64,000 bases of DNA, from positions 174,794-238,793 of the forward strand of contig JAQVLA010000001.1 of assembly GCA_028704385.1 (NCBI GenBank), written 5' to 3'. Shown piece by piece: positions 26,311 through 53,424 of the stretch. The notes beneath the pieces are model-generated. The model ran no database searches, was not told the DNA's origin, and saw only the letters and a list, made by a program, of their open reading frames with translations. This DNA is from Bacteroidales bacterium (GTDB lineage: Bacteria > Bacteroidota > Bacteroidia > Bacteroidales > F082). The translations under genes and the position numbers were made by a program. How positions within the stretch are numbered: position 1 is the first letter of the stretch; each line of letters opens with the position of its first letter.

Positions 26311-26355
26311 TCAATTTTAACCATGAACAGAAAAACTACTTTTCTGCGATGGCTT
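26311..26355 (+). repeat. 45-nt block identical to 34838-34882 (translation-initiation region of giant genes A and B)
   Basis: TCAATTTTAACCATGAACAGAAAAACTACTTTTCTGCGATGGCTT is identical in both genes. The following signal-peptide codons diverge strongly. Confidence 0.9.
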
Positions 26356-29300
26356 GGTTCCTTTATGGTAGGAGTTTTCCTGCTTTCCGGAATCGGGCTT
26401 AATGCTTATGCGCAACAAGCGTCGCGCAGAGCTCCGGTTGATCCTTCGACACTGGTAGGAATGCCAGCCGAACGACAAAATGCCGGAACTTTTACACCTT
26501 CTAACCGTGAAGCTCAAAACATTGACATCACTGTTGATGTTGATAATTGGTTCGATGAAGCTGAATGGAATATCTGGAGCTATGACCAAGGTGCCTATTA
26601 TTATCCTTCATGGCAGCTTTTTAGTTCTTCCTTTGAAGTTGTTAATGTTATTGTTGGCCTTGAGCCAGGCGATTATTCCATTGATGTATGGGATGATTTT
26701 GGTGATGGCGGCATCGGGGGCATAGTTAAACAAGGTTTGGTAACCTTGGTGAGCTGGGATAATTATGATTATACAGATTTTGCCTGGTTTGATTTTACTG
26801 TTTTTGAACCAGCTCCACGCGTTGATGTTACTCCTTTGGTACTTGATTTGGGCGATCGTCCAATCAATTCCTGGACAGAACCTGCTTATTTCACCGTACA
26901 AAATACAGGTGTAGGTCCTGTAACTATCAATAATGCCGAAATTGCTGCCGATGCTTTCTTCGGCGTAGCTGCTCCTTCATTCCCCATTACTTTAGAAGAA
27001 GGAGAAACTGTTGAAATTGGTATTACTGCCACAGGCAATGCTGCTCCTGGTTTGCTCGAAGGCGACTTCGTAGTGCAATGGGGTGCTGGCCGCGAAGTGA
27101 CCGTAACCGAATTTATGGCTAATGCCTATGAACCAATTGTTGCAGATGTGGTTGAAACAGCTATTGAGCTGCCTGTTAATACGATGGCTCCTGCAAGTTT
27201 GCCAATAGCTGATTCAAGAGAGTTTGGTGGTATTTACAAGAACTATATCTTGCCTAATGATGTTGGATCTGGTCCAAATGATAACGACTATGTATATCTG
27301 CTTCTACCCGCAACAGACATGCTGTTTGATGTGTATGTGACCAGTGGTTCTGCTAATTTTGCTATTTATGCTGCTGACTTTAGCGGCGAAGATGGCCCAA
27401 TGGCAACCAATGCCTTAGTTCAGGCAGTTGATGCAATTGACGATTTCGAACTCTTTGCTGGCACTTACTATTTAGTAGGTAGCTCTTTGGATGTATGGGG
27501 TGGCTCATTTAATGTAGATGCTATGCCAGATCCAGAAGCAGCTATCAACATTGCTCCTGCTGATGGAGCTGTAGATATTATCAATGGTACTGATCTGGAG
27601 TGGGCATTTGGAGCCAATACACTGGAATATCAGGTTATTTTGGGTACTACCTATCCACCTGCAACTGTTGTTGTTGACTGGACGGATGAGTTAGCTACTT
27701 CCTATACCCTTTCTAATCTTGAACCTAACCTTCAGTATTTCTGGCAGGTTAATGTACGTAATAATGGTGCTACAACTACCGGCGAAGTTTGGGGATTCAC
27801 TACTACTTTAACTCCTCCATCTGATCTTACAGGTAATGCTGAAGTTTACGAAGGTGAAGATGTTGTTTTAACATGGGAAAGCCCTGTTGACCGTGCCTTC
27901 CTCGGATACAATGTATTTAAGGATGGCATACAGCAAAATGTTTCTATGCTTACCGAAGCTACCTACACAGATGTAGCTCCTGCATACAATATGACTCCTG
28001 GATATGAGTACACCGTTACCGCTATCTATGACGAAGGCGAATCAGATCATTCTGCTCCTTTCACTGCACAGGTAACAGGCGAAGGTACCTTAAATGGTAA
28101 TGTTTCTGACCTGAATACAGGTGATGACATTGCTGGTGCTACTGTTTCCATGATTGGTGTGGATGAGTTTGGTGAAGATCAATCATACAGCACCACTACG
28201 GATGCCAATGGAAATTATACCGCTGATGTTTTCGCCGGCACTTACGACATTCGCGTTACTGCTGACGGTTACCTGCCTGCAGAAGTAACTGGCGTGGCTC
28301 TTGCCTATGGAGCTACCGAAACTACTGACTTTGTTCTGAATGAAACACCTTATCCGGTTGCCGTTGTAACTGCCAGCGAGTTTGGTGAAAACATCCTGAT
28401 AGAGTGGAGCTTTGATTTAGTTAACTTTGTTCCTCAGGTTTATCCTTTCGATAGCGAAAGTATGAACGAAGCTCAAATCCAGAAAATGTGGAAGGGATTC
28501 CTTGCTGAGAATAACTTCGATGCTACCGCTCAGGGAAGTGATCGCGCACTGGTTGAATTCCAGGTATGGCGTGAAAAAGCTTACCTGCCAGGAACTATCG
28601 AATTGGTTGGTACTACTTCACAATTCCAATTTGTTGACTTCGACTGGGATGTTCAGGATTGGGGTGTTTACAAATGGTATGTAGTTGCAGTTTATGATCT
28701 GAACGAATCAGATCCTGTAGGTTCAAATACAGTTGACAAGGACATGAACACTGTTGTTGATGTTACTGTTGCCCTCAATTCAGCTGACAGCCCTGCCGGT
28801 ACGCTCGTTGAGTTTACCAATGTGGACGAATCTCCTGAGTTGATTTATTCAGCCTTGCTGCCTGCAAGTGGTGAGTACGAATGGAGTGAGTTCCGCAAAG
28901 GTACCTACGACATCCTTGTAAGCTTACCAGGATATGGTGTTGTAAACGAAACCGGTGTTGATATTTTCGACGAAACCTCATTCGAATGGTTGCTCGAAGA
29001 ATTACTCGCAACACCTGCTGACCTTTATGTTACCCCAACAGGTTTTGCTACCTGGACAGGTGGAAGCGGTGAAGTGCCATTTGTTCCTGTTGTAGTTGAC
29101 TTTAATGATGGCATACCAGCTGACTGGACTGTTGAAGACGGTGAATTAGCTAATGCTTCTGGTGGAAGTTGGCAGGTAGTTCCTTCAACTTCCGGAAGGT
29201 ATATGATGGGCGATGATTATGTAATTGCTGATTCTGACGCAGCTGGAAGCGGAAGTATTACCCATACTATACTTACTTCTGCTGTTTATCCTGCCGAAGG

Positions 29301-32300
29301 TGAAAGTGCCTTGTATGTTGAGTTTGATCAATATTATTATTATTCAAGTTATTATCCAACATTCTCAAAAGTATCTGTATTTGACGGTACTTCCTGGGTA
29401 GTTGTATTGGATCAAACTGCTACCTCAGGCACATGGTCAACACCTGCACATATTGTTATAGATGTTTCAGCTTATGCTAATGCTGATTTCCAGGTTCGCT
29501 TCGAATATTATGGCGACTGGTCGTTCTATTGGGGAGTTGATAATATTGGTATAACAAATGCCACTCCTCCAACCCGTTCATTCGAAACTTATAAAGTATT
29601 CCTTGATGGCACTTTGCTTGGTGAAGTAACTGAAACAGAATACCAACATGGTGGATTTGGTGAAATCCTCGTTGATGGTGAAACCTATACTACCGGTGTT
29701 GCTGCTGTATTCTCAACGGGTCAATCAGCTACTGCTGAATTTACCTGGTTGTATGTAGCCTGTGACAATTACGATGCTCCTACAGCTTTCACTGCTGAAC
29801 AGGTAATTGGAACACTCGATGTAGCTCTTAACTGGACTAACGTTGATGCTGCAGCCCTGGATACCATCTCAGCTTTGAGAATTTATCGCAATGGTGAAGA
29901 ATATGTTGAGCTTGATTTCACAGCCGGAGCGGTTGATACTTATCTGGACGAAGAACTCGAATTCGGAACTTATAACTATTGCCTTACCTACATCTATGAC
30001 AGCGGTGCCGAAACCTGTGTTGACGCAGTATGCTCAGAAGATGTTGTAATCACTGGTGGTGGTTATGTAAACGGTACCGTAACTGCTTTTGACGGTGGTG
30101 CCCCAATTGGTGGTGCTACAGTTACCATCTTTAACGATAACTTTAGCTTTGAGTTTACTACCAATGCAAGCGGTTATTATGAAGGTGAAGTTGTTGACGG
30201 AACTTACGATTATCTGGTAGGTGCCGAAAACTTTGAATCACAATTGTTAGAAGATGTAACAATCACCTTTGGTGAAACCGTTACCCAAAACTTCCAATTG
30301 CTTGAATTCCCCTTCCCGGTAAATAGCGTTGTTGCTGAGTACCAAGGTGAAAATGCTGTTAAAGTATATTGGAACTCACCTGGCACTTCAGGTGGTGGCG
30401 GAACCGTATTTGAAGATTTCGATGATGGAATGCCAAGTATGTTGGTTGTTGATGAGCCAGTTGCTAACTGGACTGTCGCCAACAGTTTCCTTAATCTGAG
30501 TTCTAGTGGAACAAGCGCATGGAGGTCAGCTTATTACAATGCAGAATATAGTGATGTATTGTTTGAGGTTGAAACACAACGTACAACTGGTGCTACAACA
30601 GGTGCTATGGGTATCTATGTTCGTGGTACCGGTGTTGTTGATCCAACTGTTGGTAATGGCGAAAGTGCTAACGTTTTCACTATCACCCAGAGTGGGTCAT
30701 GGTGGTATGCCACTTTGCTTAACGGTGACCTGATGGGCGACTGGACTGGCTGGATGACTTCATCCGCTATCAATACAAGTGGTCCAAACGTTATTACCGC
30801 CGTGGCTCAGGGTACTACCGTTCAGTTCTTCGTTAACAATACCCTTGTTTATACTGTTAACAATACCACACTTACCGAAGGTAAAGTAGGTATGTTTATC
30901 GCAGAAGGAACAGCTGCTGCTACAACAGTATGGGATTATATGATGATTGAACCGGGTGGCGTTGTAACTCGCGACTATGAAACTAACCATATTGCTATCG
31001 AAAGCAAAGGCTCATTAAGTGAATCTTACATCGCTTATGAAAATACCGTTGAACCCAAAGGAGTGAGCTATCATAAAAACACTGCCAGCTCACGCGAACT
31101 GGAAGGCTATAATGTTTATCGCATGCCTTGCTATGATGACGAAGACTTCACATTCCTGGGTTATACCCTTGATACTGTTTTCGTTGACAATCAGTTTGGT
31201 GGATTGGATGCTGGTGTTTACAAATGGGCTGTTGAGGCTGTTTACACCAATAACGAAGCAGAACCTCAGTTCTCCAACTGTCTCGACAAAGACATGATCA
31301 CAACTGTAAGTGTTACGGTAACTACTAACAGCGGCGACAGCCCTGAAGAAACCGATGTGATGTTCACCAATATTTCTGAACCAGATCTTGAATTGGTTTA
31401 CGAAGTAGAACTGGACGAAACTGGTTTCTACGCATGGGAAGAATTCCGCAAAGGTGTTTATGACATTTACGTTGAAAAGAATGGCTTTGCACCAATCGAA
31501 CTGATGGGCTATGTGATTGATGGTCCTGAAGCATTTGAATGGTTACTCGAAGAACTCTTGTTACCTGTTGCTGACCTATACGTAACACCTACTGGTTTTG
31601 CTACCTGGAGGTCAGGTGGAGAAATTCCTTTCGAACCTTTCATGGAAGGCTTCAACGATGGATTACCTGAAACATGGACGATTATTGATGGCGGAAGCAC
31701 TTCCGACACCTGGTATAATGTTACACCTGCTGGTAATCCACAATCTCCTGGTTCATCGCTTGATGGAACACCATTTATGTTTGCTGATTCTGATGGAGCC
31801 GGTTCAGGTTCTACAATGGATGAGCAGATGATATCACCTGTAATCAATGCAGAAAATGCTGACGAACTATATTTGATGTTTGATTATCTCTACATTAATC
31901 TGTCAACAAGTGAATATTTCTCAGTAGATGTATTTGATGGTGATGATTGGGTAGAAGTATTCTTCTCACAGACTGATTCAGGTTCATGGCCATGGGATGA
32001 TGCTACTACAGCTGAAATTGATGTGACCGAATATGCAAATGATATGTTCCAGGTACGTTTCAACTACTTCTCACCAGGCTGGAACTGGTACGTAGCTGTT
32101 GACAATGTTGTTGTTACTGACAATATGGATCGCTATGCTGATCGCGAATTGCAGTACTACAAAGTATGGTTGGACAATAACTTCATTGTTGATACAGAAA
32201 ATACTTTCTGGCAATATGATGTTACCAATTTGGTACCTGGTCAGGACTATCTGGCTGAAGTTGCTGCAGTTTATTCTAACGGTATCTCCGAAAGAATGCA

Positions 32301-34380
32301 ATACGTTTGGACTTATGTTCCTTGCGAAGATTACGCTGGCCCACAGGTTTATAACGGCGAAGTAATCAACGACAACGACGTACTGCTTACCTGGTCAGAT
32401 GTTGAACCACTCGAACTGATACAAATCACCCAGAATCCAGGTGCTCCAAGCAATGGTTATTTCCAACAGTTTGGTTATGGTTATGGTGTTGCTTACGACC
32501 TGAGTGCTTATCCGGATGCAATGGTTAACAGCCTTGATTTCCACCATGCTTCATGGGGTACTACCGGAACATGGGAATACAACATCCACATCTTCGATTG
32601 GGATACTAAAACCCTGATCGAAACTGTTGGACCACTCACAACCACAGGAAACGACCTCTGGGAAATGGGTGTTGAACTGGGAGATATTGCCACCGGTGGT
32701 GTAAGTACTGTTGCTTTGTTAATGGAACCACTCGGTAACATAGCTTCGGATGCTTATCCATGTATTTCATCTGATGATGCTGCTAACCCACAGGGTTCAG
32801 TTTATGGAAGCCTTTCAAATCCATCTGCAATCGGATCTTCTACAATTGGTAACTTCCTGATGGATATGTACATCTATACTGCTTATGGCCCGGTAAGAGC
32901 TACTCCTGTTAATTTTGACCTTGTTGAAGCTCCTGTTGCCCAAGCCAGAGTTGCTGTAAATAATGTACCTGAACTTCCGGTGATTACACAAAATGCTGTT
33001 AGCAGCCGTGATGTTGATCCATTCATTGGTGCAAACATTTACCGCAATGGTGTTCTTATCGCTGAACTTGTACAAGATACCTTCTATCTTGACCAAAACG
33101 TAAATGGTGGTGAATTTACCTACTGCCTGCGTTATGTTTATGAAAGTGGTGCGATGACTTGCGAAGACGCATATTGTCTTGACCTTTCAGTTCCTTGTGA
33201 AGCTCCTGTCAATTTGGCTGGTGAATATCTCTGGCAATATAATGAAGGAAATCCAGAATTTGGATCATTAATCACCTGGGAATCTGCAACACCTCCTGTT
33301 GCCGAATGGTTATACTATGATGATGGTGTAAACGTTGACGGTATCGGTGGTCCTGCTTCTTTCTCATGGGCAATCAAATTCGACCCTGCTCAACTGGAAG
33401 ATTATGCTGGTGCTTCACTGACCAAGATCAGCATTTACAACAGAACCGGAGCAACCGATGAGCTGCGTATCTACGAAGGTACCAATGCCGCTACATTGCT
33501 GCATACCCAGCCATTGAGTGGTTTAGGTATCGAAACATGGGAAGAAGTTGATCTTACTAGTCCTGTTCTCATTGATGTTACTAAACAACTCTGGATCACA
33601 GTTTACACCACTGATGGTGTGAATTATCCTGCTGGTTGTGGTAATGCTCAGGGTCAACCTAATGGTGACTTGATCACGCTTGATGGCGTTCTTTGGGAAC
33701 ACTTAACAGATTATGCGCTTCCTTATACATGGAACCTCCGTGGTTATGTTACTACCGCAGTTGGCGCTACTGTTGCCTTGCCAATGGATAAACCGAATGA
33801 TGTTTACAACAATGATGTTCGTGCAGAATTGACTGTATCCGGAACCGGTGCCGGCGAGAATGCTGTTTTGGAAACTACTGCTAGCCGCGAATTATTTGTT
33901 TACAACGTTTATCGCAGCGAAGATGGTGACGACTATGAGTGGATTGCTGCTGTGCCATTTGATGCAGCAACCTCAACATATGAATACTATGATACAGATG
34001 TTGATGCTCAGGTAGGTTACTACTATCAGGTAACTGCATTACATACTTATGATGACGATACTGAGTGTGAATCAGCACCAGCAATGGCACTTGATAATCC
34101 AGAGGACGACTTTGTTTATGTATTTGTAACCAATGTTGATGAACTGGGTGCTGCTGAAGCCCGCATGTTCCCGAACCCGGCTACAAACAACGTAACCATC
34201 GAAGCTGCCGGTATGAATCGTATCACGGTTATCAATGCAGTGGGTCAGGTAGTTTACGATTCAGAGATCAGCAACGTAAGAACTCAGTTCAACGTTGCAT
34301 CTTACGAAGCAGGTGTTTATGTAGTACGCATCAATACTGAAAGTGGTGTTGTAACTAAACGTCTGACTATCGTACGCTAG
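26323..34380 (+). CDS. Giant T9SS-secreted multidomain surface protein, paralog A (2685 aa from ATG 26323)
   Basis: Signal peptide MNRKTTFLRWLGSFMVGVFLLSGIGLNAYAQQ (the track ORF begins 47 codons earlier). The body contains repeated Fn3-like, CarboxypepD_reg-like (GTLNGNVSDLNTGDDIAGATVSM...TTDANGNYTADVFAGTYDIRVTADGY), MAM/choice-of-anchor-J-like, Ig/ASH-like and PPC-like modules, plus a LamG-like insert. The C-terminal T9SS type-A sorting domain is MFPNPATNNVTIEAAGMNRITVINAVGQVVYD...GVYVVRINTESGVVTKRLTIVR. Confidence 0.85.
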   Translation: MNRKTTFLRWLGSFMVGVFLLSGIGLNAYAQQASRRAPVDPSTLVGMPAERQNAGTFTPSNREAQNIDITVDVDNWFDEAEWNIWSYDQGAYYYPSWQLFSSSFEVVNVIVGLEPGDYSIDVWDDFGDGGIGGIVKQGLVTLVSWDNYDYTDFAWFDFTVFEPAPRVDVTPLVLDLGDRPINSWTEPAYFTVQNTGVGPVTINNAEIAADAFFGVAAPSFPITLEEGETVEIGITATGNAAPGLLEGDFVVQWGAGREVTVTEFMANAYEPIVADVVETAIELPVNTMAPASLPIADSREFGGIYKNYILPNDVGSGPNDNDYVYLLLPATDMLFDVYVTSGSANFAIYAADFSGEDGPMATNALVQAVDAIDDFELFAGTYYLVGSSLDVWGGSFNVDAMPDPEAAINIAPADGAVDIINGTDLEWAFGANTLEYQVILGTTYPPATVVVDWTDELATSYTLSNLEPNLQYFWQVNVRNNGATTTGEVWGFTTTLTPPSDLTGNAEVYEGEDVVLTWESPVDRAFLGYNVFKDGIQQNVSMLTEATYTDVAPAYNMTPGYEYTVTAIYDEGESDHSAPFTAQVTGEGTLNGNVSDLNTGDDIAGATVSMIGVDEFGEDQSYSTTTDANGNYTADVFAGTYDIRVTADGYLPAEVTGVALAYGATETTDFVLNETPYPVAVVTASEFGENILIEWSFDLVNFVPQVYPFDSESMNEAQIQKMWKGFLAENNFDATAQGSDRALVEFQVWREKAYLPGTIELVGTTSQFQFVDFDWDVQDWGVYKWYVVAVYDLNESDPVGSNTVDKDMNTVVDVTVALNSADSPAGTLVEFTNVDESPELIYSALLPASGEYEWSEFRKGTYDILVSLPGYGVVNETGVDIFDETSFEWLLEELLATPADLYVTPTGFATWTGGSGEVPFVPVVVDFNDGIPADWTVEDGELANASGGSWQVVPSTSGRYMMGDDYVIADSDAAGSGSITHTILTSAVYPAEGESALYVEFDQYYYYSSYYPTFSKVSVFDGTSWVVVLDQTATSGTWSTPAHIVIDVSAYANADFQVRFEYYGDWSFYWGVDNIGITNATPPTRSFETYKVFLDGTLLGEVTETEYQHGGFGEILVDGETYTTGVAAVFSTGQSATAEFTWLYVACDNYDAPTAFTAEQVIGTLDVALNWTNVDAAALDTISALRIYRNGEEYVELDFTAGAVDTYLDEELEFGTYNYCLTYIYDSGAETCVDAVCSEDVVITGGGYVNGTVTAFDGGAPIGGATVTIFNDNFSFEFTTNASGYYEGEVVDGTYDYLVGAENFESQLLEDVTITFGETVTQNFQLLEFPFPVNSVVAEYQGENAVKVYWNSPGTSGGGGTVFEDFDDGMPSMLVVDEPVANWTVANSFLNLSSSGTSAWRSAYYNAEYSDVLFEVETQRTTGATTGAMGIYVRGTGVVDPTVGNGESANVFTITQSGSWWYATLLNGDLMGDWTGWMTSSAINTSGPNVITAVAQGTTVQFFVNNTLVYTVNNTTLTEGKVGMFIAEGTAAATTVWDYMMIEPGGVVTRDYETNHIAIESKGSLSESYIAYENTVEPKGVSYHKNTASSRELEGYNVYRMPCYDDEDFTFLGYTLDTVFVDNQFGGLDAGVYKWAVEAVYTNNEAEPQFSNCLDKDMITTVSVTVTTNSGDSPEETDVMFTNISEPDLELVYEVELDETGFYAWEEFRKGVYDIYVEKNGFAPIELMGYVIDGPEAFEWLLEELLLPVADLYVTPTGFATWRSGGEIPFEPFMEGFNDGLPETWTIIDGGSTSDTWYNVTPAGNPQSPGSSLDGTPFMFADSDGAGSGSTMDEQMISPVINAENADELYLMFDYLYINLSTSEYFSVDVFDGDDWVEVFFSQTDSGSWPWDDATTAEIDVTEYANDMFQVRFNYFSPGWNWYVAVDNVVVTDNMDRYADRELQYYKVWLDNNFIVDTENTFWQYDVTNLVPGQDYLAEVAAVYSNGISERMQYVWTYVPCEDYAGPQVYNGEVINDNDVLLTWSDVEPLELIQITQNPGAPSNGYFQQFGYGYGVAYDLSAYPDAMVNSLDFHHASWGTTGTWEYNIHIFDWDTKTLIETVGPLTTTGNDLWEMGVELGDIATGGVSTVALLMEPLGNIASDAYPCISSDDAANPQGSVYGSLSNPSAIGSSTIGNFLMDMYIYTAYGPVRATPVNFDLVEAPVAQARVAVNNVPELPVITQNAVSSRDVDPFIGANIYRNGVLIAELVQDTFYLDQNVNGGEFTYCLRYVYESGAMTCEDAYCLDLSVPCEAPVNLAGEYLWQYNEGNPEFGSLITWESATPPVAEWLYYDDGVNVDGIGGPASFSWAIKFDPAQLEDYAGASLTKISIYNRTGATDELRIYEGTNAATLLHTQPLSGLGIETWEEVDLTSPVLIDVTKQLWITVYTTDGVNYPAGCGNAQGQPNGDLITLDGVLWEHLTDYALPYTWNLRGYVTTAVGATVALPMDKPNDVYNNDVRAELTVSGTGAGENAVLETTASRELFVYNVYRSEDGDDYEWIAAVPFDAATSTYEYYDTDVDAQVGYYYQVTALHTYDDDTECESAPAMALDNPEDDFVYVFVTNVDELGAAEARMFPNPATNNVTIEAAGMNRITVINAVGQVVYDSEISNVRTQFNVASYEAGVYVVRINTESGVVTKRLTIVR
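29564..30100 (+). repeat. High-identity block shared with giant gene B (37704-38240, constant offset 8140)
   Basis: Hand count gives 3 mismatches in 170 nt for 29731-29900 vs 37871-38040. Identity is about 89-95% in the flanks and drops to about 65-70% after about 30100. Confidence 0.85.
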
Positions 34381-34418
34381 TCTGATGAAATCGAAATTTT
34401 GATTTCGACATATACAAG

Positions 34419-34447
34419 CCGGATCCCAACAGGGATCCGGTTTTTTT
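34419..34447 (+). terminator. Intrinsic terminator after giant gene A
   Basis: CCGGATCCC-AACA-GGGATCCGG followed by TTTTTTT. An AT-rich hairpin TCGAAAT-TTTG-ATTTCGA (34391-34408) precedes it. Confidence 0.8.
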
Positions 34448-34558
34448 ATTAATAATTTTGACATTTTTCTGAATGTCCTAAACATCTAAAGGTCTGATGT
34501 TTTGGTCATGAAATAAGAATAAATTTCTATAAAACCCTTGTATTTATTAGGCTTTTAT

Positions 34559-34837: not shown

Positions 34838-34882
34838 TCAATTTTAACCATGAACAGAAAAACTACTTTTCTGCGATGGCTT
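34838..34882 (+). repeat. 45-nt block identical to 26311-26355
   Basis: See the feature at 26311-26355. Confidence 0.9.
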
Positions 34883-43320: not shown

Positions 43321-46300
43321 ATGAAAAGTAATCTTACTTATGCACGATGGCTCTTCAGTGTTTTGCTGATAGCTTTCGTCTGGTCTGGTTCTGCTTTTGC
43401 TCAAAGCAAAGTAGTCAAACCAGATCAGGATGTATTGTCAGCGATCGAGTCAGCGGCTGCTGTCTTTGATCAGGGACAGTTAAATCCTACCCGAAACTTC
43501 AGAAGCCCGGTTTGCCCGAGTGGTAATCTTTCTGAAGGTTTTGAAGACTTAACCTTTCCTCCATCGGGATGGGTACGCTATAACCCGCTTGGTGCGAATC
43601 AATGGGTGAGGAGTACAACCTATAGCAATACTGGGTCGGCCTCAGCGTATATTACTTATCAATCCACTGGCGGAGAAGATTGGCTTGTAACTCCCAAGGT
43701 GAATGTGCTGGTAGGGGATGAAATCAGTTTTTGGATTAGACATGCTTTTTCTTCTGATTATCCACCTGATAATCTCGCTGTTTTGGTTTCAACGACTGAC
43801 AACAGCATGGCCAGCTTTACCGATGTGATTGCAACATTAGCCGTTGGAACTGATTATACTGATGTTTTCCAGCAAAAAAGCTATGCATTGGATGCCTATG
43901 CCGGTCAGAGCGTTTACATTGCTTTTAAACACACAAATACAGACGGTAATGGGATTTATATTGATGATGTTGAAGGTCCCGAATTATATTCTCCCTATTT
44001 TGCAAGTGATCCCTCTCTTGATTTTGGAGTAACCTATGATTTGGGCAGCTATTCAATGGATTTTGAAATTGCAAACTGCAGCGCAGGCGATTTGGAACTA
44101 ACATTTAATAGCGCCAGCCCTGAAGTAGGCATTTCAGGTTTACCTCTTACCGTAGCAACTGGTGATGTTGGTACTATCACGGTGAACTTTGATCCTTCAT
44201 CAGCCGGATTATACACAGGTGATTTTATGATAAACACCAATGATCCGGATAACCCGATTCTTGAGGTTGAAGTGCTCTCAGCAGTTCAGGAAGCAGTTGT
44301 TACTGCCTCAATATACGAAAACTTTGATTCGTATGCGGGCTTTGAAATACCTGATAACTGGATAGGTAATTTTAGCACCCGAACAACTGGAGGGGTTAAC
44401 AATACTGGCAGATTTACCAGAAATCTATGGTCATTAAACTCTACCGGTCAGTTTGGTACTAATTTTGTTGACATTGCCGATGATGGCACTTTGAGTTTTC
44501 AGTACAGGATTGTTGATTATTCTGGCTATCCTTCTACACCAACACCTGCAGCAAATGTTGACTTTGGTGTTTATATGAGTACAGATTTCGGGAATTCATT
44601 CCTTCCTCTTTGGGTGTTTGATCCGCTGACTCATGTTGAATCATTAGATTACGCAGCTGTTGAGATAGATTTGAGTGCATATTCAGGCGAAACTGCTATT
44701 TTTGTTGTTGATGCTGTATGGAATAGTGGAGATTTTTATCTTGATTTTGACGATTTCAATGTAACCTTTGTTGAACCAGGGCTGCAGTTTTTGGTTGATG
44801 AAATCCTGATGGGAGATCGTCCGATTGGAGCCTGGATGAGACCAGCCAGCCTTGGTATGATTAATAACCCTGGAAGAGGTAGTTATACTTTTACTGCGGT
44901 TGACCTTGATAATAACTATAATGGCTTTTTGAGTGCTTCAAGCCCCGAACTGCCTTTTGTGCTTGATGAAGGAGAAACTACTGACGCCTTTGGTATTCGT
45001 ACTAATAATGTTGAAGCAACTCCCGGAGCTTATAATGGTTTGCTTGCTTTGTTCTATACACCATCGGATCGGGCTGTTGCAGTTATTCCATATAGTGGAA
45101 ATGCATATGTGCCGCTTGAAGGTGATGTATGGGAAACAGCTTTTGATGCAAATGCTGTTACTTTCCCTGACGTTGTGGCGATGGGCAGCTTCGTTAATAA
45201 CTACCTACTCCCGGGTGAAGACGAAGATGGCTGGGATGTGGTATATAAAATTGATGTGAATAGTGGTGATGTTTTGCTTGATATTACCCTAACAGCCGAT
45301 GATGCCAAAATGGCAATTTACGCTTCAGGTTTTGAAGGTGTTGGTGGTCCTGATGTTGCTAATGCCATTTATGAAGGCACTACAGGAGCTACCGGTCTGG
45401 AACTTTTTGAAGGGGTTTATTATCTGGTTGTAAGTACTACAGGTGCCGACTTTACCCTTGATGTAGTAGATAACCTAATGCCAGCTCCTGATGCAGTAAC
45501 TTACCTGGCTCCTGCTGATGGTGCAACTGGTATAATTAATGGAGATGAACTGGAATGGGCATTTGGTGCCGGAGTAATTGAATATCAGTTGATTCTGGGA
45601 ACTACCTATCCTCCGGCAACCGTTGTGGTTGACTGGACAACGGATTTGGAAGAGTCTTATACACTGACCACCTTAAATCCCAATATGCAATACTTCTGGC
45701 AGGTAAACGTACGGAATAATAATGGTACTACCGGTGGGGAAGTTTGGGGATTCACAACTTCCATTACACCTCCTGCTGATCTTACCGCTACGGTTAATGA
45801 TCCGGGTGAAACTTCTGCTACTGTAAGTGCTACCCTGGAATGGACAAGTCCGCTGGATCGCGCGTTAATTGGGTACAATATCTACCGTGATGCAGTGATG
45901 ATTAACACTGATCCTGTAGTAGGTGAAAGCTTTACAGATTTAGGACTGGCACGTAACGCAGCCTATTCTTATTACGTAACCGCTGTATTTGATGAAGGAG
46001 AATCTGATCCTTCCAATATTGTTAATATTAATACTTTAGGAGTCGGAAGTGTAGAAGGATATGTATTTGAAGCATTAAATAATGATCCTATCGAAGGGGC
46101 TACTGTTCGTTTGCAGGGTGCCAATGGTATTTATACTTATGCTACTGACGCGGATGGTGCTTACGAAGGTCTGGTTTATGCAGGATTGTACAGCTATACC
46201 GTAAGTGCTACTGATTATGATAATCAAACACTTTCCGGACAAACGGTAATTCATGGTGGGACACTTATGAACGATTTTTATCTTACAGAATCACCATATC

Positions 46301-49300
46301 CGGTAGCGGATGTAGTGGCTTTTGAACTGGATGAAGACATGGTTCAGATTACCTGGGGCGGTTCAACACCTCCTCCTCCACCTCCATTGATTGCCGAGTG
46401 GCTGTCATACGATGACAATGGTATTGCAACGCAATACTGGTGGGCTGGAGCAGGTGCACCTTTCTCCTGGGCTATCAGTTTTGACCCTGCTGACCTGGCA
46501 GAACTGGATGGCTCTTCTTTAACCAAAATTGCCATTTTCAATACTGCTGTTGCAGATGTAAATACACTGAACATCTATCAAGGCGATCTGGAAGCAGGAA
46601 CTGCAACTTTGGTTCATACCCAGAACTTAACCGGTCTTACGCTGGAAGCCTGGAATGAAGTTGATCTGACAGTTCCGGTACCGATTGATGTCGCACAACA
46701 ACTCTGGATATCATTGTACAGCCCAAGTCCAACCGGTGGAGTAGCTGCTTCAACACCCATTTACAACGCTAAAGGTGATTGGGTTAATTTTACAGGTAGT
46801 TGGCTACATATGAGTGCTGACCTGGGTTATGATGTTACCTGGAGCCTGAGAGCCTTTGCTACCAATGCTGCCAACAGAAGTGTTACGCAACTTGTTAGCA
46901 AATATCAGGAACCCAGATACAATACCAATGCAAGTGCTTCTTTAGAATCATTTGATGTTGTTGGTGCTAAACCATTCCGTCCGGAAACTATCGCCAGAGG
47001 AATTGCAGATTATACTGTATGGCGCGAAAAGGTTTATCAACCCGGCATATTGGAAGAAATAGGAAATACAACTCAGCTTGATTTTGTAGATTTCGACTGG
47101 GCTACAATAGATTGGGGTGTTTATCGCTGGGCCGTAACAGCCAATTACGATGGAGGCCAAAGCTCTATTCCTACCTTCTCCAATACTTTGGATAAGGACA
47201 TGGAAGTAGTAGTTGATGTTGCTGTAACACTCAATTCCAATGAATCACCCGGTGGAACTTCTGTTACCTTTACCAATATTTCAGAGCCGGATCTTGAACT
47301 GGTTTTCAATACCACACTTGACAATTCAGGCTTGTTTACCTGGAACGATTTCCGTCGCGGTGTGTACGACATCGAAGTTAAACTACCTGGCTATGCTGTT
47401 GTTAATGAGGCCGGTGTAGAAATCTTTGATGATGCTTCATTCGCATGGTTACTGGAAGAAATTCTGGCTACACCTTCAGCATTATATGTTACTCCAACAG
47501 CTTTTGCAACCTGGGAAGGTGGAAGTGGAGATTCTCCTTTTGTTCCTTTGATGGAAAGCTTTGATGGACTTGCCACAGATGAATTACCTGAAGGTTGGAC
47601 TAAATCTCCTGAAACCACAAACTGGGGAGCTGATAATTCAAATTTAGCTGGTGGTGTTGCACCTGAAATGGAATTTTATTGGTCCCCATCAAGTACTGAT
47701 GAATTTTATTTGATGACACCTGTGATGAGTACTGCTGGTATGAGTATGCTTGAATTATCATTCAGACATTACGTAAGTCATTATAATAGTACTACTTATA
47801 CCTGGTCACTCAGAGTGGTAGCGATTGCTGATGGTGTAGAATATTTGATCCAGGAATGGAATCCAACTGCAAGTATTCCGGCAACTCAGGTATTTTTTGA
47901 CCTGACAGCTGCTCATGGAGTTGGTGCCAGTGAGTTTCAAATTGCCTGGGTTTTCGATGGACAAACCTTTGGAATTAATTACTGGGACATTGATGATGTA
48001 ATGCTCAATGGCCCAAGAGCCAAAGCTGGCCGTTCATTCGAAAATTACAAGGTATTCCTGGATGGTCAATTGGTTGATGAAACAACGGATAGCGAATATC
48101 AGTATGATGTTTCAACACTTGTTCCTTACGAAACATACACTGCTGGTGTTGCTTCTGTATTCTCAACAGGCCAGTCACCAACAGCTGAGTTCGACTTTAT
48201 CTATGTTCCATGCGAAGATTATGATGCTCCTTCTGCTTTCGCAGCCGCTCAGGTTGAAGGCACACTCGACATCCTGCTCGAATGGACGAATGTGGACGCT
48301 GCTGCTTTGGATACCATCTCAGCTTTGAGAATCTATCGCAATGGCGAAGAATATGCCGAACTTGACTTTACTGAAGGAGCTGTTGACATGTTCCTCGATG
48401 AAGACCTCGAATTCGGTATGTACACTTACTGTGTAACCTATATTTATGACAGCGGTGCCGAAACCTGTCAGGGTGTAACTTGCTCTGAAGAGATCGAAAT
48501 CGACGGCAACGCCGCAGTTGACGGTATGGTAATGCAGGCTGCTTATCTCGGTGGTGATCCTATCCAGGGTGCATCTGTGTTGCTTGTTAATGTGGATGAT
48601 CCGGATATGACGTTCGAATATTTCACCGATGCAACGGGTGCTTACGAAGGCAGCGTGATAGCTGGTACTTATGACTATTTTGTAAGTGCAATGGGATACT
48701 CAACGGAAACGCTCGAAGATGTTGTAATTGTGTTGAATGCAACAGTTACCAACAACTTCGAACTGATGGAATTCCCATTCCCGCCGATCAATGTGGTTGC
48801 AACAGAAATCTCGGATGATAATGTCTTGATTACCTGGCACAACCCAACCTATGCACCATTTGAACCTATCCTGGAGACCTTTGATAATGGTATTCCTTCA
48901 AGCTGGACAATAGTTGATGGTGGTACTTCAACGGATACCTGGTATATGGAAACCCCTGCAGGGAATCCACAAAGTACAGGTGCTTCACTGGATGGAACTC
49001 CATTTGCTTTCGTTGATTCCGACGAAGCCGGTAGCGGATTCACCCTGGATGAACTATTGATTTCTCCTGTTATCAATGCTTCAACCTCTGAGGAATTGTA
49101 CGTTATCTTCGATCAGTACTATAACTTCCTTACCTCTGGCGAATATGCCAAGGTTGATGTATTTGATGGTACCGATTGGGTTACAGTATTGAATCAGGTT
49201 GCTGATGCCGGTGCATGGAATAACCCTGATCATCGTGTAATTGATGTGACTGCATATGCCAATGAGAATTTCCAGGTTCGTTTCCATTTCTTTGACAATG

Positions 49301-52300
49301 GAGGCTGGACATGGTACTGGGCAGTTGATAATGTAGCCATCGTTGATCAGGTTACACGCAGTGGAATGCCCGTTTTGAGCAATACCACACCACCCGAACG
49401 CGAACTCTTTGGATATGAAGTATATCGCACTACCTGTGAAACTGGCGATCTGCAATTCCTTGGTCTTACTTTGGACACCTTGTTCAACGACAATACCTGG
49501 GGTGGATTGGAAGCCGGTGTTTATAAATGGGGTGTAGTTGCTGTTTATGATGAAGATAACTTATCAGAAATGGTATTCTCCAATTGTCTGGATAAAGACA
49601 TGATCACTCAGGTCAGTGTAACCGTTCAAACCAATAGTGGTGATCTGCCAGACGGAACAAACGTGATGTTTACCAATACTTCAGAACCCGATCTTGGTTT
49701 GGTTTATGATGTAATGCTGGATGAAACAGGATATTATATGTGGGAAGAATTCCGTAAAGGTATCTATGATATTTATGTTGCCAAAAACGGATTCGAACCG
49801 ATCGAAATTGCCGATTATCTGATTGATGGTCCTGAAGATTTCGTATGGACGCTTAATGAAGCCTTACTTCCTGTTTCTGATCTGTATGTTACACCAACAG
49901 GTTTTGCAACCTGGAGAGGTGGAAGCGTAATACCATTCGAACCATTTATGGACGACTTCTCTGAAGGAATTGATGCCTGGACAACTGAACCAGCCACTGG
50001 TAACTGGCAATTGAGCCAAACCAACCTGGCTGGCGGTGTTGCTCCTGAGGTACGTTTCTACTGGAGTCCAAATACTACAAACAGGTTCTACTTCAAGTCG
50101 CCTGTGATGAGCACGCTCACACAAACTGAACTGGAGCTGAGCTTTGATCACTTTGTAGATCATTATGCTACACCATTCACTATTTCTGTTGTAACCATCG
50201 CTGATGGTCAGGAGTATCTGGTGGAAGAATGGAATCCTACTGCTGATATTCCTGCCAATAATCATGTTGTAACACTTACTAATGCGCATGGAGTTGGTGC
50301 GGATGAATTCCAGATCGCATTTGTGTTTGATGGAGAAGCCTGGAATGTAAACTGGTGGAATATCGACAATGTAATGCTTTATACTCCCGGAACCCGTGAG
50401 CTTGAGTATTACAAGGTATGGCACGAAGGTTTATTCATTACCGATACTCCCGAGACTTACTATCAATACGATGTTGAAGGTCTTGGATTAGTTGAAGGTG
50501 AAGAATACCTGGCAGAAGTTGCAGCCATTTATTCCAATGGTATGTCGCCTAAGATGAGCTATCTTTGGACTTATTATGGTTGTGAAAACTTCCCCGGACC
50601 TGAAGAACTCACTGCTGAAGTGAACGGTCAGGATGTAACCCTCAACTGGGACGAAGTTGTTCCTCCACCACCAGGTGGTGATGGTATTGAAGAAGACTTC
50701 GAAAGTGGTTCATTATCCGAAGGCTGGACGGTTGAACAAACCAATACTGCCACTGGTGGGCCTACACCATCTTATTGGACTGTAAACAATTATATCAGTA
50801 CTGATTTCTCTCCATTTGGAACTTATCATGCTGGATTATGGTGGGATTATGGCCATCAGGATGAATGGTTGATTACCCCAGAATTCAATGTTCCGGCTGG
50901 TGCCGAGTTGAGTTTCTGGTCCGTTGTTTACCAGGGCAGTACTTACCTGGATCACTATTATGTGAAGATTTCAACCGATGGTGGTTCTACCTGGACTGTA
51001 CTTTGGGATGCTTCAACACTTAGTGGTGGATGGAATTACTACAACTTCCCATACGATATCGACCTTAACAGCTACGCAGGACAGGATGTAAAACTTGCTT
51101 TCCAGGCTGTTGATGGTGACAATCAAGGTCTCTGGTATATCTTCTTTGTAGATAACATTGTAGTATCTGGTGAAAGCAGATCTCTGGCCTTCGATACCGA
51201 AAGTCTGATCCGTCAGAGCAATTCTGCAAACCGTGATATGTATGCCCGTGATGGGAACAATACAGCTATCGCACGTCATCTTAATGCAGAAGCAGATGCT
51301 GATGCCGAAATCAGAACCGTTGAAATGGGCCGCGAAATGTGGGATCTGCTGTATGACTTTGATATGGATACTCCTTCTGGTTTAACTGGCCTGGCCGGTG
51401 CCGAATCTGATGGTGAGTTTATCTATGCAACTAAATGGGCAAATAATCAACTTGTTAAATTCGATCTCGATGGTAATCATATCGAAACCTTCACCATTCC
51501 TGGTGTTACAGGCTTGAGAGACCTTGCCTATGATGGAACCTACTTCTATGGAGGTAGCGGTGCTACTACAGTATATAAGATGGACTTCACTAATCATACC
51601 CTGGTATCCAGCTTCACTGCTCCAACAGCAGTAAGAGCTATTGCTTACGATGCTGATAATGATGCATTCTGGGCTAATAACTGGGCAACAGATATGATTC
51701 TTTTCACTGAAACAGGTACCGTTTTAAATACCTTGACAGGAATGCCAAGTATGTATGGTAACGCTTACGATAACTTTAGCGAAGGTGGCCCGTATTTGTG
51801 GTTCTTTACGGGTACAACAACAGGTGGTGGTTGCCAGGTTGAGCAATATAATATTGCAACCGGATCCCTGACTGGTGTTTCACACAGTGTTAGTGCTGAC
51901 CTGGGCGATTATATCGCTGGTGGCCTTTACATTGTTGAAGACCTTATCAATGATAAAGTAATCCTGGGTGGTACTGCACAAGGAACTCCAGACATTGCCT
52001 TTGGCTATGAAATTGTTGACAACTCCGGCGGTGGCGGCGGAGGCGGTGGAACTATTGATCCGGGCGTTCTGCTTGGTGCCAATATCTATCGCAATGGTGA
52101 GCTTATCGCTGAAATGGTTCCCGGAACCAGCTATGTTGACGAAGACGTAGAATATGGTATGTACACTTATTGCGTTACCTTCGTTTACGAAAGCGGTGCT
52201 GAGTCATGCTTCGGAACTTGTGTTGACGTGGAAGTTGCCTTCCCATGCGATCCTCCAAAGGACCTCACTGGTGTTTATGAGTGGACAATAGAAGAATTTG

Positions 52301-53424
52301 GAGCACTTATCGGATGGAATTCACCACAGGATGCAATAGCAGAGTGGCTGTATTATGATGATGGAACTAATGTTGACGGTATTGGTGGCCCTGCTTCCTT
52401 TACCTGGGCTATCAAGTTCGATCCTGATCAGTTGGCAGATTACGCTGGTGCTTCGCTCACCAAAATTGAAATCTACAACAGAACAGCTGCAACGGATGAG
52501 CTGCGTATTTACGAAGGAAATAATGCTGCTACATTGCTTCATTCACAGCCATTGAGTGGTTTGGGTATCGAAGTTTATGAAACAGTTGACCTGACAGAGG
52601 CAGTTCTTATTGATGTTACCAAACAGCTATGGATTGCCGTTTACACGACAGATGGAGTGAATTATCCTGCAGGTTGCGGACCTACTCAGAATGAGCCTAA
52701 CGGTGACCTGATCACGCTGGATGGCGTGCTTTGGGAACATCTGACTGACTATGCATTACCATATACCTGGAACCTCCGCGGTTATGTAACCAATGTTGCT
52801 GGTGCAACTGCTGCCTTGCCAATGGAAAAACCTGTTGACGACTACAGCAACAACACCGAACCATTGAAAATTACAGGAAAACCAAGTGCACAGTTTGCAG
52901 CTCCTGCCTCTGCAGTACAGGCTGATCGCGAATTGGATGTATTTAATATCTATCGTGAAACAGCTGATGTTGATGTTTACGAGCTCATTGCTACTGTTCC
53001 ATTTGAAGAAGGTGTTACGGCTTACAGTTACTTTGATACTGATGTTGAAGCTCAACAAGGGTACAATTATCAGGTCACTGCCGCCTATTCCTATACGAAC
53101 GGAACCTGCGAATCAGAGCCCGCTATGGCACTCGAAAATCCAGAGGATGACTTTGTATATGTATTCATTACCAATACAAGCGAATTCGGTTTGAACAATA
53201 CCCGCGTTTATCCTAACCCGGCTACTAACAATGTTATGATTGAATCTGCACAGATGAATCGCATCACTGTGATGAATGCCGTTGGTCAGCTGGTAATCGA
53301 TCTTGGTGTTGAAGGTAATAATACTTATCCTCTGAATACCAGTGCTTATGAATCTGGTGTATATTTGATTCGTATCGAAACCACCGAAGGTGTTGTAACA
53401 AAACGTCTGACAATCGTTAGATAA
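43321..53424 (+). CDS. Giant T9SS-secreted multidomain surface protein, paralog C (3367 aa)
   Basis: Signal peptide MKSNLTYARWLFSVLLIAFVWSGSAFAQ. It has two choice-of-anchor-J-like domains (about 43522-43980 and 50683-51175) on the shared Fn3/CarboxypepD_reg/MAM-like backbone. It also has two EWLxYDD modules and a beta-propeller-like insert (about 51330-52020). The C-terminal T9SS sorting domain is VYPNPATNNVMIESAQMNRITVMNAVGQLV...GVYLIRIETTEGVVTKRLTIVR. Confidence 0.85.
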   Translation: MKSNLTYARWLFSVLLIAFVWSGSAFAQSKVVKPDQDVLSAIESAAAVFDQGQLNPTRNFRSPVCPSGNLSEGFEDLTFPPSGWVRYNPLGANQWVRSTTYSNTGSASAYITYQSTGGEDWLVTPKVNVLVGDEISFWIRHAFSSDYPPDNLAVLVSTTDNSMASFTDVIATLAVGTDYTDVFQQKSYALDAYAGQSVYIAFKHTNTDGNGIYIDDVEGPELYSPYFASDPSLDFGVTYDLGSYSMDFEIANCSAGDLELTFNSASPEVGISGLPLTVATGDVGTITVNFDPSSAGLYTGDFMINTNDPDNPILEVEVLSAVQEAVVTASIYENFDSYAGFEIPDNWIGNFSTRTTGGVNNTGRFTRNLWSLNSTGQFGTNFVDIADDGTLSFQYRIVDYSGYPSTPTPAANVDFGVYMSTDFGNSFLPLWVFDPLTHVESLDYAAVEIDLSAYSGETAIFVVDAVWNSGDFYLDFDDFNVTFVEPGLQFLVDEILMGDRPIGAWMRPASLGMINNPGRGSYTFTAVDLDNNYNGFLSASSPELPFVLDEGETTDAFGIRTNNVEATPGAYNGLLALFYTPSDRAVAVIPYSGNAYVPLEGDVWETAFDANAVTFPDVVAMGSFVNNYLLPGEDEDGWDVVYKIDVNSGDVLLDITLTADDAKMAIYASGFEGVGGPDVANAIYEGTTGATGLELFEGVYYLVVSTTGADFTLDVVDNLMPAPDAVTYLAPADGATGIINGDELEWAFGAGVIEYQLILGTTYPPATVVVDWTTDLEESYTLTTLNPNMQYFWQVNVRNNNGTTGGEVWGFTTSITPPADLTATVNDPGETSATVSATLEWTSPLDRALIGYNIYRDAVMINTDPVVGESFTDLGLARNAAYSYYVTAVFDEGESDPSNIVNINTLGVGSVEGYVFEALNNDPIEGATVRLQGANGIYTYATDADGAYEGLVYAGLYSYTVSATDYDNQTLSGQTVIHGGTLMNDFYLTESPYPVADVVAFELDEDMVQITWGGSTPPPPPPLIAEWLSYDDNGIATQYWWAGAGAPFSWAISFDPADLAELDGSSLTKIAIFNTAVADVNTLNIYQGDLEAGTATLVHTQNLTGLTLEAWNEVDLTVPVPIDVAQQLWISLYSPSPTGGVAASTPIYNAKGDWVNFTGSWLHMSADLGYDVTWSLRAFATNAANRSVTQLVSKYQEPRYNTNASASLESFDVVGAKPFRPETIARGIADYTVWREKVYQPGILEEIGNTTQLDFVDFDWATIDWGVYRWAVTANYDGGQSSIPTFSNTLDKDMEVVVDVAVTLNSNESPGGTSVTFTNISEPDLELVFNTTLDNSGLFTWNDFRRGVYDIEVKLPGYAVVNEAGVEIFDDASFAWLLEEILATPSALYVTPTAFATWEGGSGDSPFVPLMESFDGLATDELPEGWTKSPETTNWGADNSNLAGGVAPEMEFYWSPSSTDEFYLMTPVMSTAGMSMLELSFRHYVSHYNSTTYTWSLRVVAIADGVEYLIQEWNPTASIPATQVFFDLTAAHGVGASEFQIAWVFDGQTFGINYWDIDDVMLNGPRAKAGRSFENYKVFLDGQLVDETTDSEYQYDVSTLVPYETYTAGVASVFSTGQSPTAEFDFIYVPCEDYDAPSAFAAAQVEGTLDILLEWTNVDAAALDTISALRIYRNGEEYAELDFTEGAVDMFLDEDLEFGMYTYCVTYIYDSGAETCQGVTCSEEIEIDGNAAVDGMVMQAAYLGGDPIQGASVLLVNVDDPDMTFEYFTDATGAYEGSVIAGTYDYFVSAMGYSTETLEDVVIVLNATVTNNFELMEFPFPPINVVATEISDDNVLITWHNPTYAPFEPILETFDNGIPSSWTIVDGGTSTDTWYMETPAGNPQSTGASLDGTPFAFVDSDEAGSGFTLDELLISPVINASTSEELYVIFDQYYNFLTSGEYAKVDVFDGTDWVTVLNQVADAGAWNNPDHRVIDVTAYANENFQVRFHFFDNGGWTWYWAVDNVAIVDQVTRSGMPVLSNTTPPERELFGYEVYRTTCETGDLQFLGLTLDTLFNDNTWGGLEAGVYKWGVVAVYDEDNLSEMVFSNCLDKDMITQVSVTVQTNSGDLPDGTNVMFTNTSEPDLGLVYDVMLDETGYYMWEEFRKGIYDIYVAKNGFEPIEIADYLIDGPEDFVWTLNEALLPVSDLYVTPTGFATWRGGSVIPFEPFMDDFSEGIDAWTTEPATGNWQLSQTNLAGGVAPEVRFYWSPNTTNRFYFKSPVMSTLTQTELELSFDHFVDHYATPFTISVVTIADGQEYLVEEWNPTADIPANNHVVTLTNAHGVGADEFQIAFVFDGEAWNVNWWNIDNVMLYTPGTRELEYYKVWHEGLFITDTPETYYQYDVEGLGLVEGEEYLAEVAAIYSNGMSPKMSYLWTYYGCENFPGPEELTAEVNGQDVTLNWDEVVPPPPGGDGIEEDFESGSLSEGWTVEQTNTATGGPTPSYWTVNNYISTDFSPFGTYHAGLWWDYGHQDEWLITPEFNVPAGAELSFWSVVYQGSTYLDHYYVKISTDGGSTWTVLWDASTLSGGWNYYNFPYDIDLNSYAGQDVKLAFQAVDGDNQGLWYIFFVDNIVVSGESRSLAFDTESLIRQSNSANRDMYARDGNNTAIARHLNAEADADAEIRTVEMGREMWDLLYDFDMDTPSGLTGLAGAESDGEFIYATKWANNQLVKFDLDGNHIETFTIPGVTGLRDLAYDGTYFYGGSGATTVYKMDFTNHTLVSSFTAPTAVRAIAYDADNDAFWANNWATDMILFTETGTVLNTLTGMPSMYGNAYDNFSEGGPYLWFFTGTTTGGGCQVEQYNIATGSLTGVSHSVSADLGDYIAGGLYIVEDLINDKVILGGTAQGTPDIAFGYEIVDNSGGGGGGGGTIDPGVLLGANIYRNGELIAEMVPGTSYVDEDVEYGMYTYCVTFVYESGAESCFGTCVDVEVAFPCDPPKDLTGVYEWTIEEFGALIGWNSPQDAIAEWLYYDDGTNVDGIGGPASFTWAIKFDPDQLADYAGASLTKIEIYNRTAATDELRIYEGNNAATLLHSQPLSGLGIEVYETVDLTEAVLIDVTKQLWIAVYTTDGVNYPAGCGPTQNEPNGDLITLDGVLWEHLTDYALPYTWNLRGYVTNVAGATAALPMEKPVDDYSNNTEPLKITGKPSAQFAAPASAVQADRELDVFNIYRETADVDVYELIATVPFEEGVTAYSYFDTDVEAQQGYNYQVTAAYSYTNGTCESEPAMALENPEDDFVYVFITNTSEFGLNNTRVYPNPATNNVMIESAQMNRITVMNAVGQLVIDLGVEGNNTYPLNTSAYESGVYLIRIETTEGVVTKRLTIVR

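Follow-up and report, generated by a model that had tools for sequence, protein, structure and literature searches.

Patchy identity between adjacent giant surface-protein genes of a Bacteroidales lineage suggests recombination among paralogs and across lineages

Do patches of near-identity between otherwise diverged neighbouring genes record recombination, or sequences that selection has kept alike? The question is raised by a stretch of 64,000 nucleotides (nt) from contig JAQVLA010000001.1 of a Bacteroidales bacterium, hereafter the window, in which three giant paralogs, A, B and C, lie head to tail on one strand, in open reading frames (ORFs) at 26182-34380, 34718-43084 and 43321-53424. A sequence-only reading of the locus had described this tandem arrangement correctly, together with a mosaic of near-identity running through all three genes, for which it proposed gene conversion or recombination. 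The mosaic holds for A and B. It does not extend to C, whose matches to A and B are 65-74% identical in nucleotides, except for matches of ~50 nt. The genes are the following:

26323-34380, forward strand: gene A (ORF from 26182), a 2,685-amino-acid (aa) cargo protein of the type IX secretion system (T9SS), NCBI MDD4372437.1.
34850-43084, forward strand: gene B (ORF from 34718), a 2,744-aa T9SS cargo protein with a cleaved-adhesin (choice-of-anchor J) domain, MDD4372438.1; the recipient of A-type tracts.
43321-53424, forward strand: gene C, a 3,367-aa T9SS cargo protein; a more distant paralog, outside the recent exchange.

Compared with BLASTN, A and B consist of blocks of ~82% identity separated by stretches without nucleotide similarity, and their synonymous-codon identity (identical codons among conserved residues) swings between ~0.1 and 0.96 in 50-codon windows. 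The patches listed earlier are reproduced: 45 of 45 nt are identical around the start codon (26311-26355 vs 34838-34882) and 167 of 170 in the near-identical block (29731-29900 vs 37871-38040), where the mismatches are transitions (G/A, C/T and T/C); 27560-27900 and 31268-31640 match B at 87.1% (best register -8) and 87.7% (best register -4). The weak similarity of the N-terminal modules is likewise recovered, at 35-46% of amino acids and 47-58% of nucleotides.

To place these patches, we compared the window with four arrays, all from metagenome-assembled genomes (MAGs): L001 (genes A1, B1 and C1), L028 (A3, B3 and C3), L029 (A4, B4 and C4) and L002 (A2 and a C-type gene). The gene order is shared by L028, L029 and L001, which makes the array ancestral: three genes were in place before the sampled species-level lineages separated. 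Nine sequences were joined in a codon alignment, eight of them entered segment-wise neighbour-joining trees with bootstrap, and synonymous divergence (dS) was calculated after Nei-Gojobori. The 623 diagnostic sites are those that set the A-type consensus, taken over A3, A1 and A2, apart from the B-type consensus of B3 and B1. When the polymorphic sites of A and B are permuted in a Sawyer-type test, p is <= 0.001, and likewise for third codon positions alone, but the test is significant in every pair, orthologs included, and by itself shows mosaicism and not its cause. The conclusion on recombination therefore rests on the segment trees, the painting of diagnostic sites and the contrasts in dS.

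Painted in this way, gene A is A-type at all 623 sites. Gene B has a B-type backbone interrupted by four A-type tracts, as listed here in B coordinates, with the A-side partner of the youngest block at the end:

34848-34900, forward strand: short A-type tract from 2 nt upstream of the ATG through codon 17, with eight consecutive A-type diagnostic sites at 34868-34900; B has A-type bases where B3, B4 and B1 share the B-type.
34934-34992: B-type.
34995-35955, forward strand: A-type tract 1, 95 diagnostic sites, in the B gene of this genome only; 67-88% identical to A.
36004-36186: B-type.
36235-38210, forward strand: A-type tract 2, ~2 kb, 193 diagnostic sites; holds the youngest near-identical block and an A3-like cassette.
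38267-39043, forward strand: retained B-type cassette, 36 B-type diagnostic sites; 88-97% nucleotide identity to B3 and B4.
39189-40327, forward strand: A-type tract 3, 97 diagnostic sites, specific to this genome.
40334-43084, forward strand: retained B-type 3' part, painted B-type over 40334-42814, with 181 B-type diagnostic sites; includes the cleaved-adhesin and T9SS sorting domains, and its A/B split has 100% bootstrap.
29722-29927 in gene A, forward strand: youngest converted core, partner of 37862-38067 in B, with 3 mismatches in 206 nt.

The segment trees change their topology along the genes. Backbone segments (A 26758-27114, 30055-30324, 32104-32463 and 33004-34026) recover the orthologous A/B split with 100% bootstrap. 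At 27115-27540, B joins A, A1 and A3 at 91% and leaves B1, B3 and B4 together at 100%; at 31204-32013 it groups with A and A3 at 86%, with B1, B3 and B4 again at 100%. The pair (A,B) appears at 29608-29964 with 90%, beside B1 and B3 at 100%, and the segment at 37169-37657 of B gives (A3,B) at 100%. Non-orthologous groupings are favoured by 179 of the 1,154 quartet-informative sites, and these cluster at A 28339-29920. Tract 34995-35955 is the most diverged: B and B3 are 47-58% identical there, against 83-99% for B3 and B4, and the tract is either old or derived from a divergent donor. The start-codon match, offered earlier as part of the conversion signal, divides in two. About 50 nt of it (34848-34900) are indeed A-type sequence in B; the rest belongs in part to a leader and first-codons motif common to all A and B genes, ATTTATT(A/C)ACTAAATCAATTTTAA..ATG.ACAGAAAAACTAC.

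With A being A-type throughout and B carrying all four tracts, the donor type is unchanged and the transfer is non-reciprocal. Within 29608-29964, A and B resemble each other more than either resembles its ortholog, both in the tree and in dS, which lies below that of A and A3. A donor in the same genome fits this block; it does not fit 37169-37657 or 34995-35955.

Exchange between lineages, which the sequence-only reading had not raised, is evident from the comparison with L028. Flanking genes of the two genomes differ by dS of 0.39-1.27 (serS 0.69, EamA 0.84, the first 820 codons of the gene for a 994-aa protein upstream of A 1.09), and the genomes are different species-level lineages. By contrast, dS drops to 0.08 over the final 174 codons of the 994-aa gene and to 0.07-0.15 over the 3' 3 kb of A, with a 344-nt exact match; 25346-26500 and 31185-34885 are 94-100% identical to L028, against ~73-92% in the flanking genes other than conserved ribosomal-protein genes. 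The fall of dS to 0.07-0.15 between flanks at 0.4-1.3 indicates a recent exchange across lineages that involved the 5' and 3' parts of A, its leader and the 3' end of the 994-aa gene. Gene B shares exact matches of 128 nt and 97 nt with A3 of L028 where its own neighbour A is ~50% identical, and thus part of the 'A-type' sequence of B comes from an A allele that was lost from this genome or was never in it. The sequence-only reading had suggested ongoing exchange; the youngest tract (dS ~0.13) postdates the split from L028, but is not recent at the scale of populations.

Similar events have marked the other arrays. B4 carries tract 36235-38210 with the same boundaries as B of the window. In A4, the segment at 33577-33756 (A coordinates) is B-type, with 92% identity to B4 and 74-77% to A and A3, a transfer in the opposite direction. 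The last ~200 nt of A1 and B1 are 89-96% identical, and (A1,B1) has 99% bootstrap at the 3' end. L002 has an A-type gene followed by a C-type gene only, and copy number thus varies between lineages. The sequence-only reading had suggested that tandem repeats of this length permit unequal crossover and copy-number change; the two-gene array of L002 does not bear this out, as A2 is A-type over its whole length and there is no A/B hybrid junction. A hybrid origin of that array was rejected on the same ground.

Another kind of change, likewise not raised by that reading, affects entire modules. The segment of A at 30283-31180 (forward strand, residues ~1330-1590) is a replaced cassette: it is 33-45% identical to A3 and A4 in nucleotides, between flanks up to 96% identical to A3, and 92% identical in amino acids to P0004, a protein from another MAG. 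Residues 921-1050 of A find their best match at 70% in P0013, and a second cassette unique to A is placed at 29110-29450. The N-terminal module of B is best matched, at 88%, by P0005, an otherwise A-like protein, and the cleaved-adhesin domain of B, which is placed differently in B1, has 94% identity to its counterpart in a C-type protein. As a pattern, these comparisons show whole cassettes swapped for non-homologous ones at fixed positions.

Could the mosaic have arisen without any transfer, through purifying selection, codon constraint or a low mutation rate? Conservation does account for the identity of the leader and start motif and of a 36-nt core shared by B and C, and for such short motifs that explanation stands. 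For the A/B blocks it retains next to no probability. At 29608-29964, dS is 0.20 for A-B and 0.47 for A-A3, vs 1.13 for A3-B3 and 1.68 for A1-B1; at 29695-29904 the values are 0.13 for A-B, 0.51 for A-A3 and 1.15 for A3-B3; tract 39189-40327 gives 0.73 for A-B, against 1.2-2.2 in other genomes, and the backbone segments of A and B themselves reach 1.8-2.2. The same blocks thus have dS of 0.13-0.73 in the window and 1.1-2.2 between A-type and B-type genes elsewhere, so that constraint fails to explain them. The sequence-only reading had held that low synonymous divergence of these blocks across orthologs would speak for purifying selection; the orthologous pairs show no such depression. In the tract segments the B-type orthologs cluster at 100% bootstrap without B of the window, and for the tracts of kilobase scale constraint is refuted. 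These sequence comparisons show that the A/B mosaic is a product of recombination and not of selective constraint, and the earlier attribution to gene conversion or recombination is upheld by lineage-specific low dS, incongruent segment trees and discrete A-type tracts in B. A mosaic might also be made during assembly, if the assembler switched at shared repeats between B and the A allele of a co-occurring strain. The window does come from a MAG, A and B are each found on one contig, fragments of C lie on contigs of 2-7 kb, and in four further assemblies, from this strain or one nearly identical to it, the sequence breaks off inside A at exactly 26527, which marks the locus as hard to assemble. 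Nevertheless, such a chimera is very unlikely: in the regions of the tracts, B3 and B1 match A-type sequence at only 47-75%, leaving no k-mers long enough for a switch in the graph unless B was already A-like; the tracts differ by 2-30% from A of the window and hence are not its copies; the 8.2-kb reading frame is uninterrupted over all eight junctions; and B4 has a tract of this kind with matching boundaries, in a protein present on 14 contigs, three of which (from three samples) were read and have an identical gene layout.

Exchange might, on the other hand, be programmed, with dedicated diversification at defined junction sequences as in antigenic-variation loci. Variable cassettes do sit at fixed positions between conserved framework blocks, B and B4 share tract boundaries, transfer in the window runs one way from A-type into B, the four assemblies fork at a single base, and the array lies downstream of a conserved pair of extracytoplasmic function (ECF) sigma factor and anti-sigma factor genes. 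Yet we consider a programmed system quite unlikely: the 23 larger ORFs scanned in the 64-kb window include no recombinase, invertase or reverse transcriptase; each of the three genes is complete, with a start and a terminator of its own, and silent partial cassettes are absent; the tract dS values from 0.13 to >1 imply rare events over a long time; and L029 shows the opposite direction. A broader proposal would treat the array, the ECF sigma/anti-sigma pair and the leader extensions described below as a dedicated surface-variation locus, in which related Lentimicrobiaceae species share a pool of cassettes and exchange them across species and non-orthologous genes at defined module junctions, co-existing variants explaining the fork at 26527; this, too, we regard as unlikely. 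Two further candidates were set aside. A diversity-generating retroelement is rejected in view of the lack of a reverse transcriptase domain in the 23 larger ORFs and of mismatches that are not adenine-specific: at 29650-29960, 8 of 15 mismatches are transitions and all four bases are involved. A site-specific recombinase or mobile-element context is rejected as well, the scan of the 23 larger ORFs of the 64-kb window having returned no recombinase, invertase, transposase or reverse transcriptase domains.

The explanation that we find likely is a combination of A-to-B ectopic conversion, cross-lineage exchange and cassette replacement, presumably by ordinary homologous recombination, acting on genes for giant T9SS surface proteins. 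Ordinary homologous recombination is the most likely agent because no dedicated enzyme is encoded nearby. Conserved framework segments, which alternate with variable cassettes, would supply its substrate. A and B have 25 exact runs of 25 nt or more in common, eight of them 40 nt or longer and the longest 65 nt; runs of such length suffice as substrates of RecA-dependent recombination in bacteria, and a RecA-type mechanism would presumably act both between adjacent paralogs and on DNA imported from related populations. The sequence comparisons show that non-reciprocal transfer has brought A-type sequence into B in four tracts of differing age; the contrasts in divergence show that segments of A and the end of the upstream gene have passed between lineages recently; and replacement of cassettes by non-homologous modules, seen as a pattern, is a third process. 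Selection would keep the recombinants with intact modules. The exposed modules would then diversify, possibly under diversifying selection on the variable cassettes, while homogenisation of the framework may keep the genes able to recombine.

Several points weigh against this explanation. All sequences are metagenome assemblies, and A and B each occur on one contig in the protein collection, which leaves the mosaic of B without independent replication. Several tracts had a donor other than the A gene now present—34995-35955 reaches no more than 67-88% identity with any A-type gene sampled—and in such tracts conversion within the genome is inseparable from import of an already chimeric allele. 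The boundaries of 36235-38210 are common to B and B4 while the tract is absent from B3, which implies either repeated events with the same boundaries or exchange of alleles across lineages. No exchange event has been observed within a population, and the dependence on RecA and the selective benefit are what we infer.

The break in the four assemblies deserves description in its own right. The fork lies at 26527/26528, 205 nt past the ATG of A, and the four independent assemblies that end there (one NCBI MAG, two from ENA and one from JGI) have an identical 994-aa gene and are 99.9-100% identical to the window upstream of 26527. The first difference to A3 near the fork is at 26532. A metagenome scan for alternative continuations with the preceding 27-mer returned one contig only (L032). 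The fork suggests that variants of the N-terminal region of A co-exist in natural populations.

Gene C follows its own orthology. Along almost all of its length it is nearest to C4, with 80-98% nucleotide identity over 48000-53424, and its identity to A or B never exceeds ~80%. In clusters at 90% protein identity C has eight members from several assemblies, and A and B are singletons. The 36-nt core, which the sequence-only reading had noted as identical in B and C, is where it was reported, with exact copies at 37999 (B) and 48309 (C); the copy in A, at 29859, has one mismatch. The core encodes LDTISALRIYRNG, and genes of A-, B- and C-type in L001, L002, L004, L013, L028 and L029 have it too, with 0-6 synonymous differences; from this distribution it is read as a conserved peptide motif, and does not support conversion. 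Conversion between B and C, or A and C, was rejected, as C tracks C4 and the core motif is widespread.

In NCBI the products of the three genes are MDD4372437-39, assigned to a 'Bacteroidales bacterium' MAG and encoded on a contig of 349,922 bp; the closest relatives come from Lentimicrobiaceae/Bacteroidales MAGs. All three products end in a type-A T9SS sorting domain within the last ~70 residues (PF18962/TIGR04183, 45-47 bits at a cut-off of 27 and 38-44 bits at one of 23) and contain CarboxypepD_reg and fn3-like modules above cut-offs; cleaved-adhesin or choice-of-anchor J domains are found in B and C, with PF07675 in B. Read from the translations, the N-termini have basic, hydrophobic and A-x-A-Q-like regions (e.g. 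MNRKTTFLRWLGSFMVGVFLLSGIGLNAYAQ), the choice of start being complicated by an in-frame upstream extension; A, B and C carry putative Sec signal peptides, with signal-peptide-like starts at 26323, 34850 and 43321. A structure model of residues 900-1650 of A shows only beta structure, and the PDB entries that match it best are multi-domain fn3, immunoglobulin (Ig) and MAM ectodomains and a Bacteroides surface glycan-binding protein; a sequence search of the PDB gave weak matches only, to fn3-like and carboxypeptidase-D-type domains. Model confidence (pLDDT) is ~30 across the replaced cassette of A, probably since few family members have that cassette, so that domains and tracts could not be compared boundary by boundary. 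Domains and model together suggest giant 'beads-on-a-string' surface proteins of beta-sandwich modules, predicted to be exported by the T9SS. No genes for the T9SS machinery (porK/L/M/N, sov, porU/V) lie within the 64-kb window, and when contigs on record were checked for ones that encode B or C exactly, none turned up. Each of the three genes also contains two to four copies of a diverged super-module, made up of an fn3-like 'Y.VYR.G' domain, CarboxypepD_reg and a choice-of-anchor-J-like domain. The copies are 30-50% identical in protein, which produces off-diagonal similarity within and between genes, a possible starting point for out-of-register recombination.

The closest described case is that of the Porphyromonas gingivalis genes rgpA, kgp and hagA, whose T9SS cargo proteins have modular adhesin domains and repeats shared between genes; their mosaics are unrelated to strain phylogeny, gene conversion has been proposed, and contigs break at them (Dashper et al. 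2017, PMC5266723). Here, too, Bacteroidota T9SS surface proteins with modular cleaved-adhesin-type domains are involved. However, the P. gingivalis genes are dispersed, have protease domains and share near-identical repeats, whereas the present genes are adjacent, ~three times longer and without a recognisable catalytic domain; the exchanged tracts are 2% to ~30% divergent, and the host is an uncultured environmental Lentimicrobiaceae-like lineage rather than a host-associated pathogen. Adjacent envelope paralogs on one strand that are partly more alike within than between genomes recall a lipoprotein cluster of Staphylococcus aureus (PMC2568036) and concerted evolution in bacteria (PMC6053082). 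The present array differs in that it consists of giant multi-module genes and combines patchy exchange with cross-lineage exchange of alleles and replacement of cassettes. Systems of the pilE/pilS type have one expressed gene, several silent truncated donor cassettes and high-frequency switching. By contrast, all copies in the window are complete, with their own starts and terminators, and the ages of the tracts speak for infrequent events. What the array shares with Neisseria pilE/pilS, Borrelia vlsE and Mycoplasma genitalium MgPa/MgPar (PMC2169797) is the non-reciprocal transfer of segments into a surface gene and conserved flanks around variable segments.

Recombination of paralogs that varies the bacterial surface is already well known; the present case places it in an unstudied family and involves no new mechanism, nor does the A/B finding open a new mechanistic question. 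It means that giant T9SS surface proteins of abundant uncultured anaerobic Bacteroidales evolve by conversion between paralogs, allele exchange across lineages and swapping of modules, a logic similar to that known from gingipain/HagA adhesins and other bacterial surface antigens. Such loci fragment short-read assemblies, and annotation or phylogeny of these genes based on orthology misleads. The variable cassettes are the parts of the proteins likeliest to touch ligands, phages or predators.

The surroundings of the array contain the following features:

19754-25860, forward strand: upstream context, with an ECF sigma factor, a FecR-type anti-sigma factor, a 447-aa protein without a Pfam match and a 994-aa beta-helix (NosD-like) T9SS protein (Pfam).
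34416-34443, forward strand: intrinsic terminator after A, a 12-pair stem followed by a T-run.
43114-43153, forward strand: terminator-like hairpin after B, -25.9 kcal/mol, z = -6.6.
53455-53488, forward strand: intrinsic terminator after C, a 15-pair stem followed by a T-run.

A hairpin 3' of each gene agrees with the earlier statement that A, B and C have their own terminators. The order sigma factor, anti-sigma factor, 447-aa protein, 994-aa protein, A, B, C is repeated in L028; the order from the 994-aa gene through C is seen in L029 and L001, and the upstream context is partly visible in L029, L001 and L024. The remaining neighbours are housekeeping genes. This shared order may point to a surface-protein locus under common regulation, one that lacks the SusC-type transducer usual beside such sigma/anti-sigma pairs in Bacteroidota. 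Just downstream of the array, 55786-57963 on the reverse strand encodes a predicted surface protein of 725 aa with CshA-repeat, Big_9 and DUF4842 matches and no match to a T9SS C-terminal domain.

Both A and B are preceded by a stop-free in-frame extension with its own ATG ahead of the signal-peptide ATG (26182-26322 for A, 34718-34849 for B). The extension of A comprises 47 codons (MNYPDQRTYQ...LLTKSILT) and is a constant 141 nt in seven genomes, and its substitutions favour third codon positions (e.g. 13/6/20 by codon position for A vs A2). The B-type extension differs from it, with 44-45 codons and a frame kept across an indel. C and more distant family members have no such extension, and the NCBI annotation uses the downstream start. 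The extension may be translated as an N-terminal addition before the signal peptide, or may be an upstream leader peptide. Finally, Lentimicrobiaceae-type arrays also occur in L001 (JAHJRN010000069.1, which has serS-like synteny as well) and L003 (JAQVUC010000239.1), in bins labelled 'Patescibacteria group bacterium' and 'Anaerolineaceae bacterium', where they are probably mis-binned.

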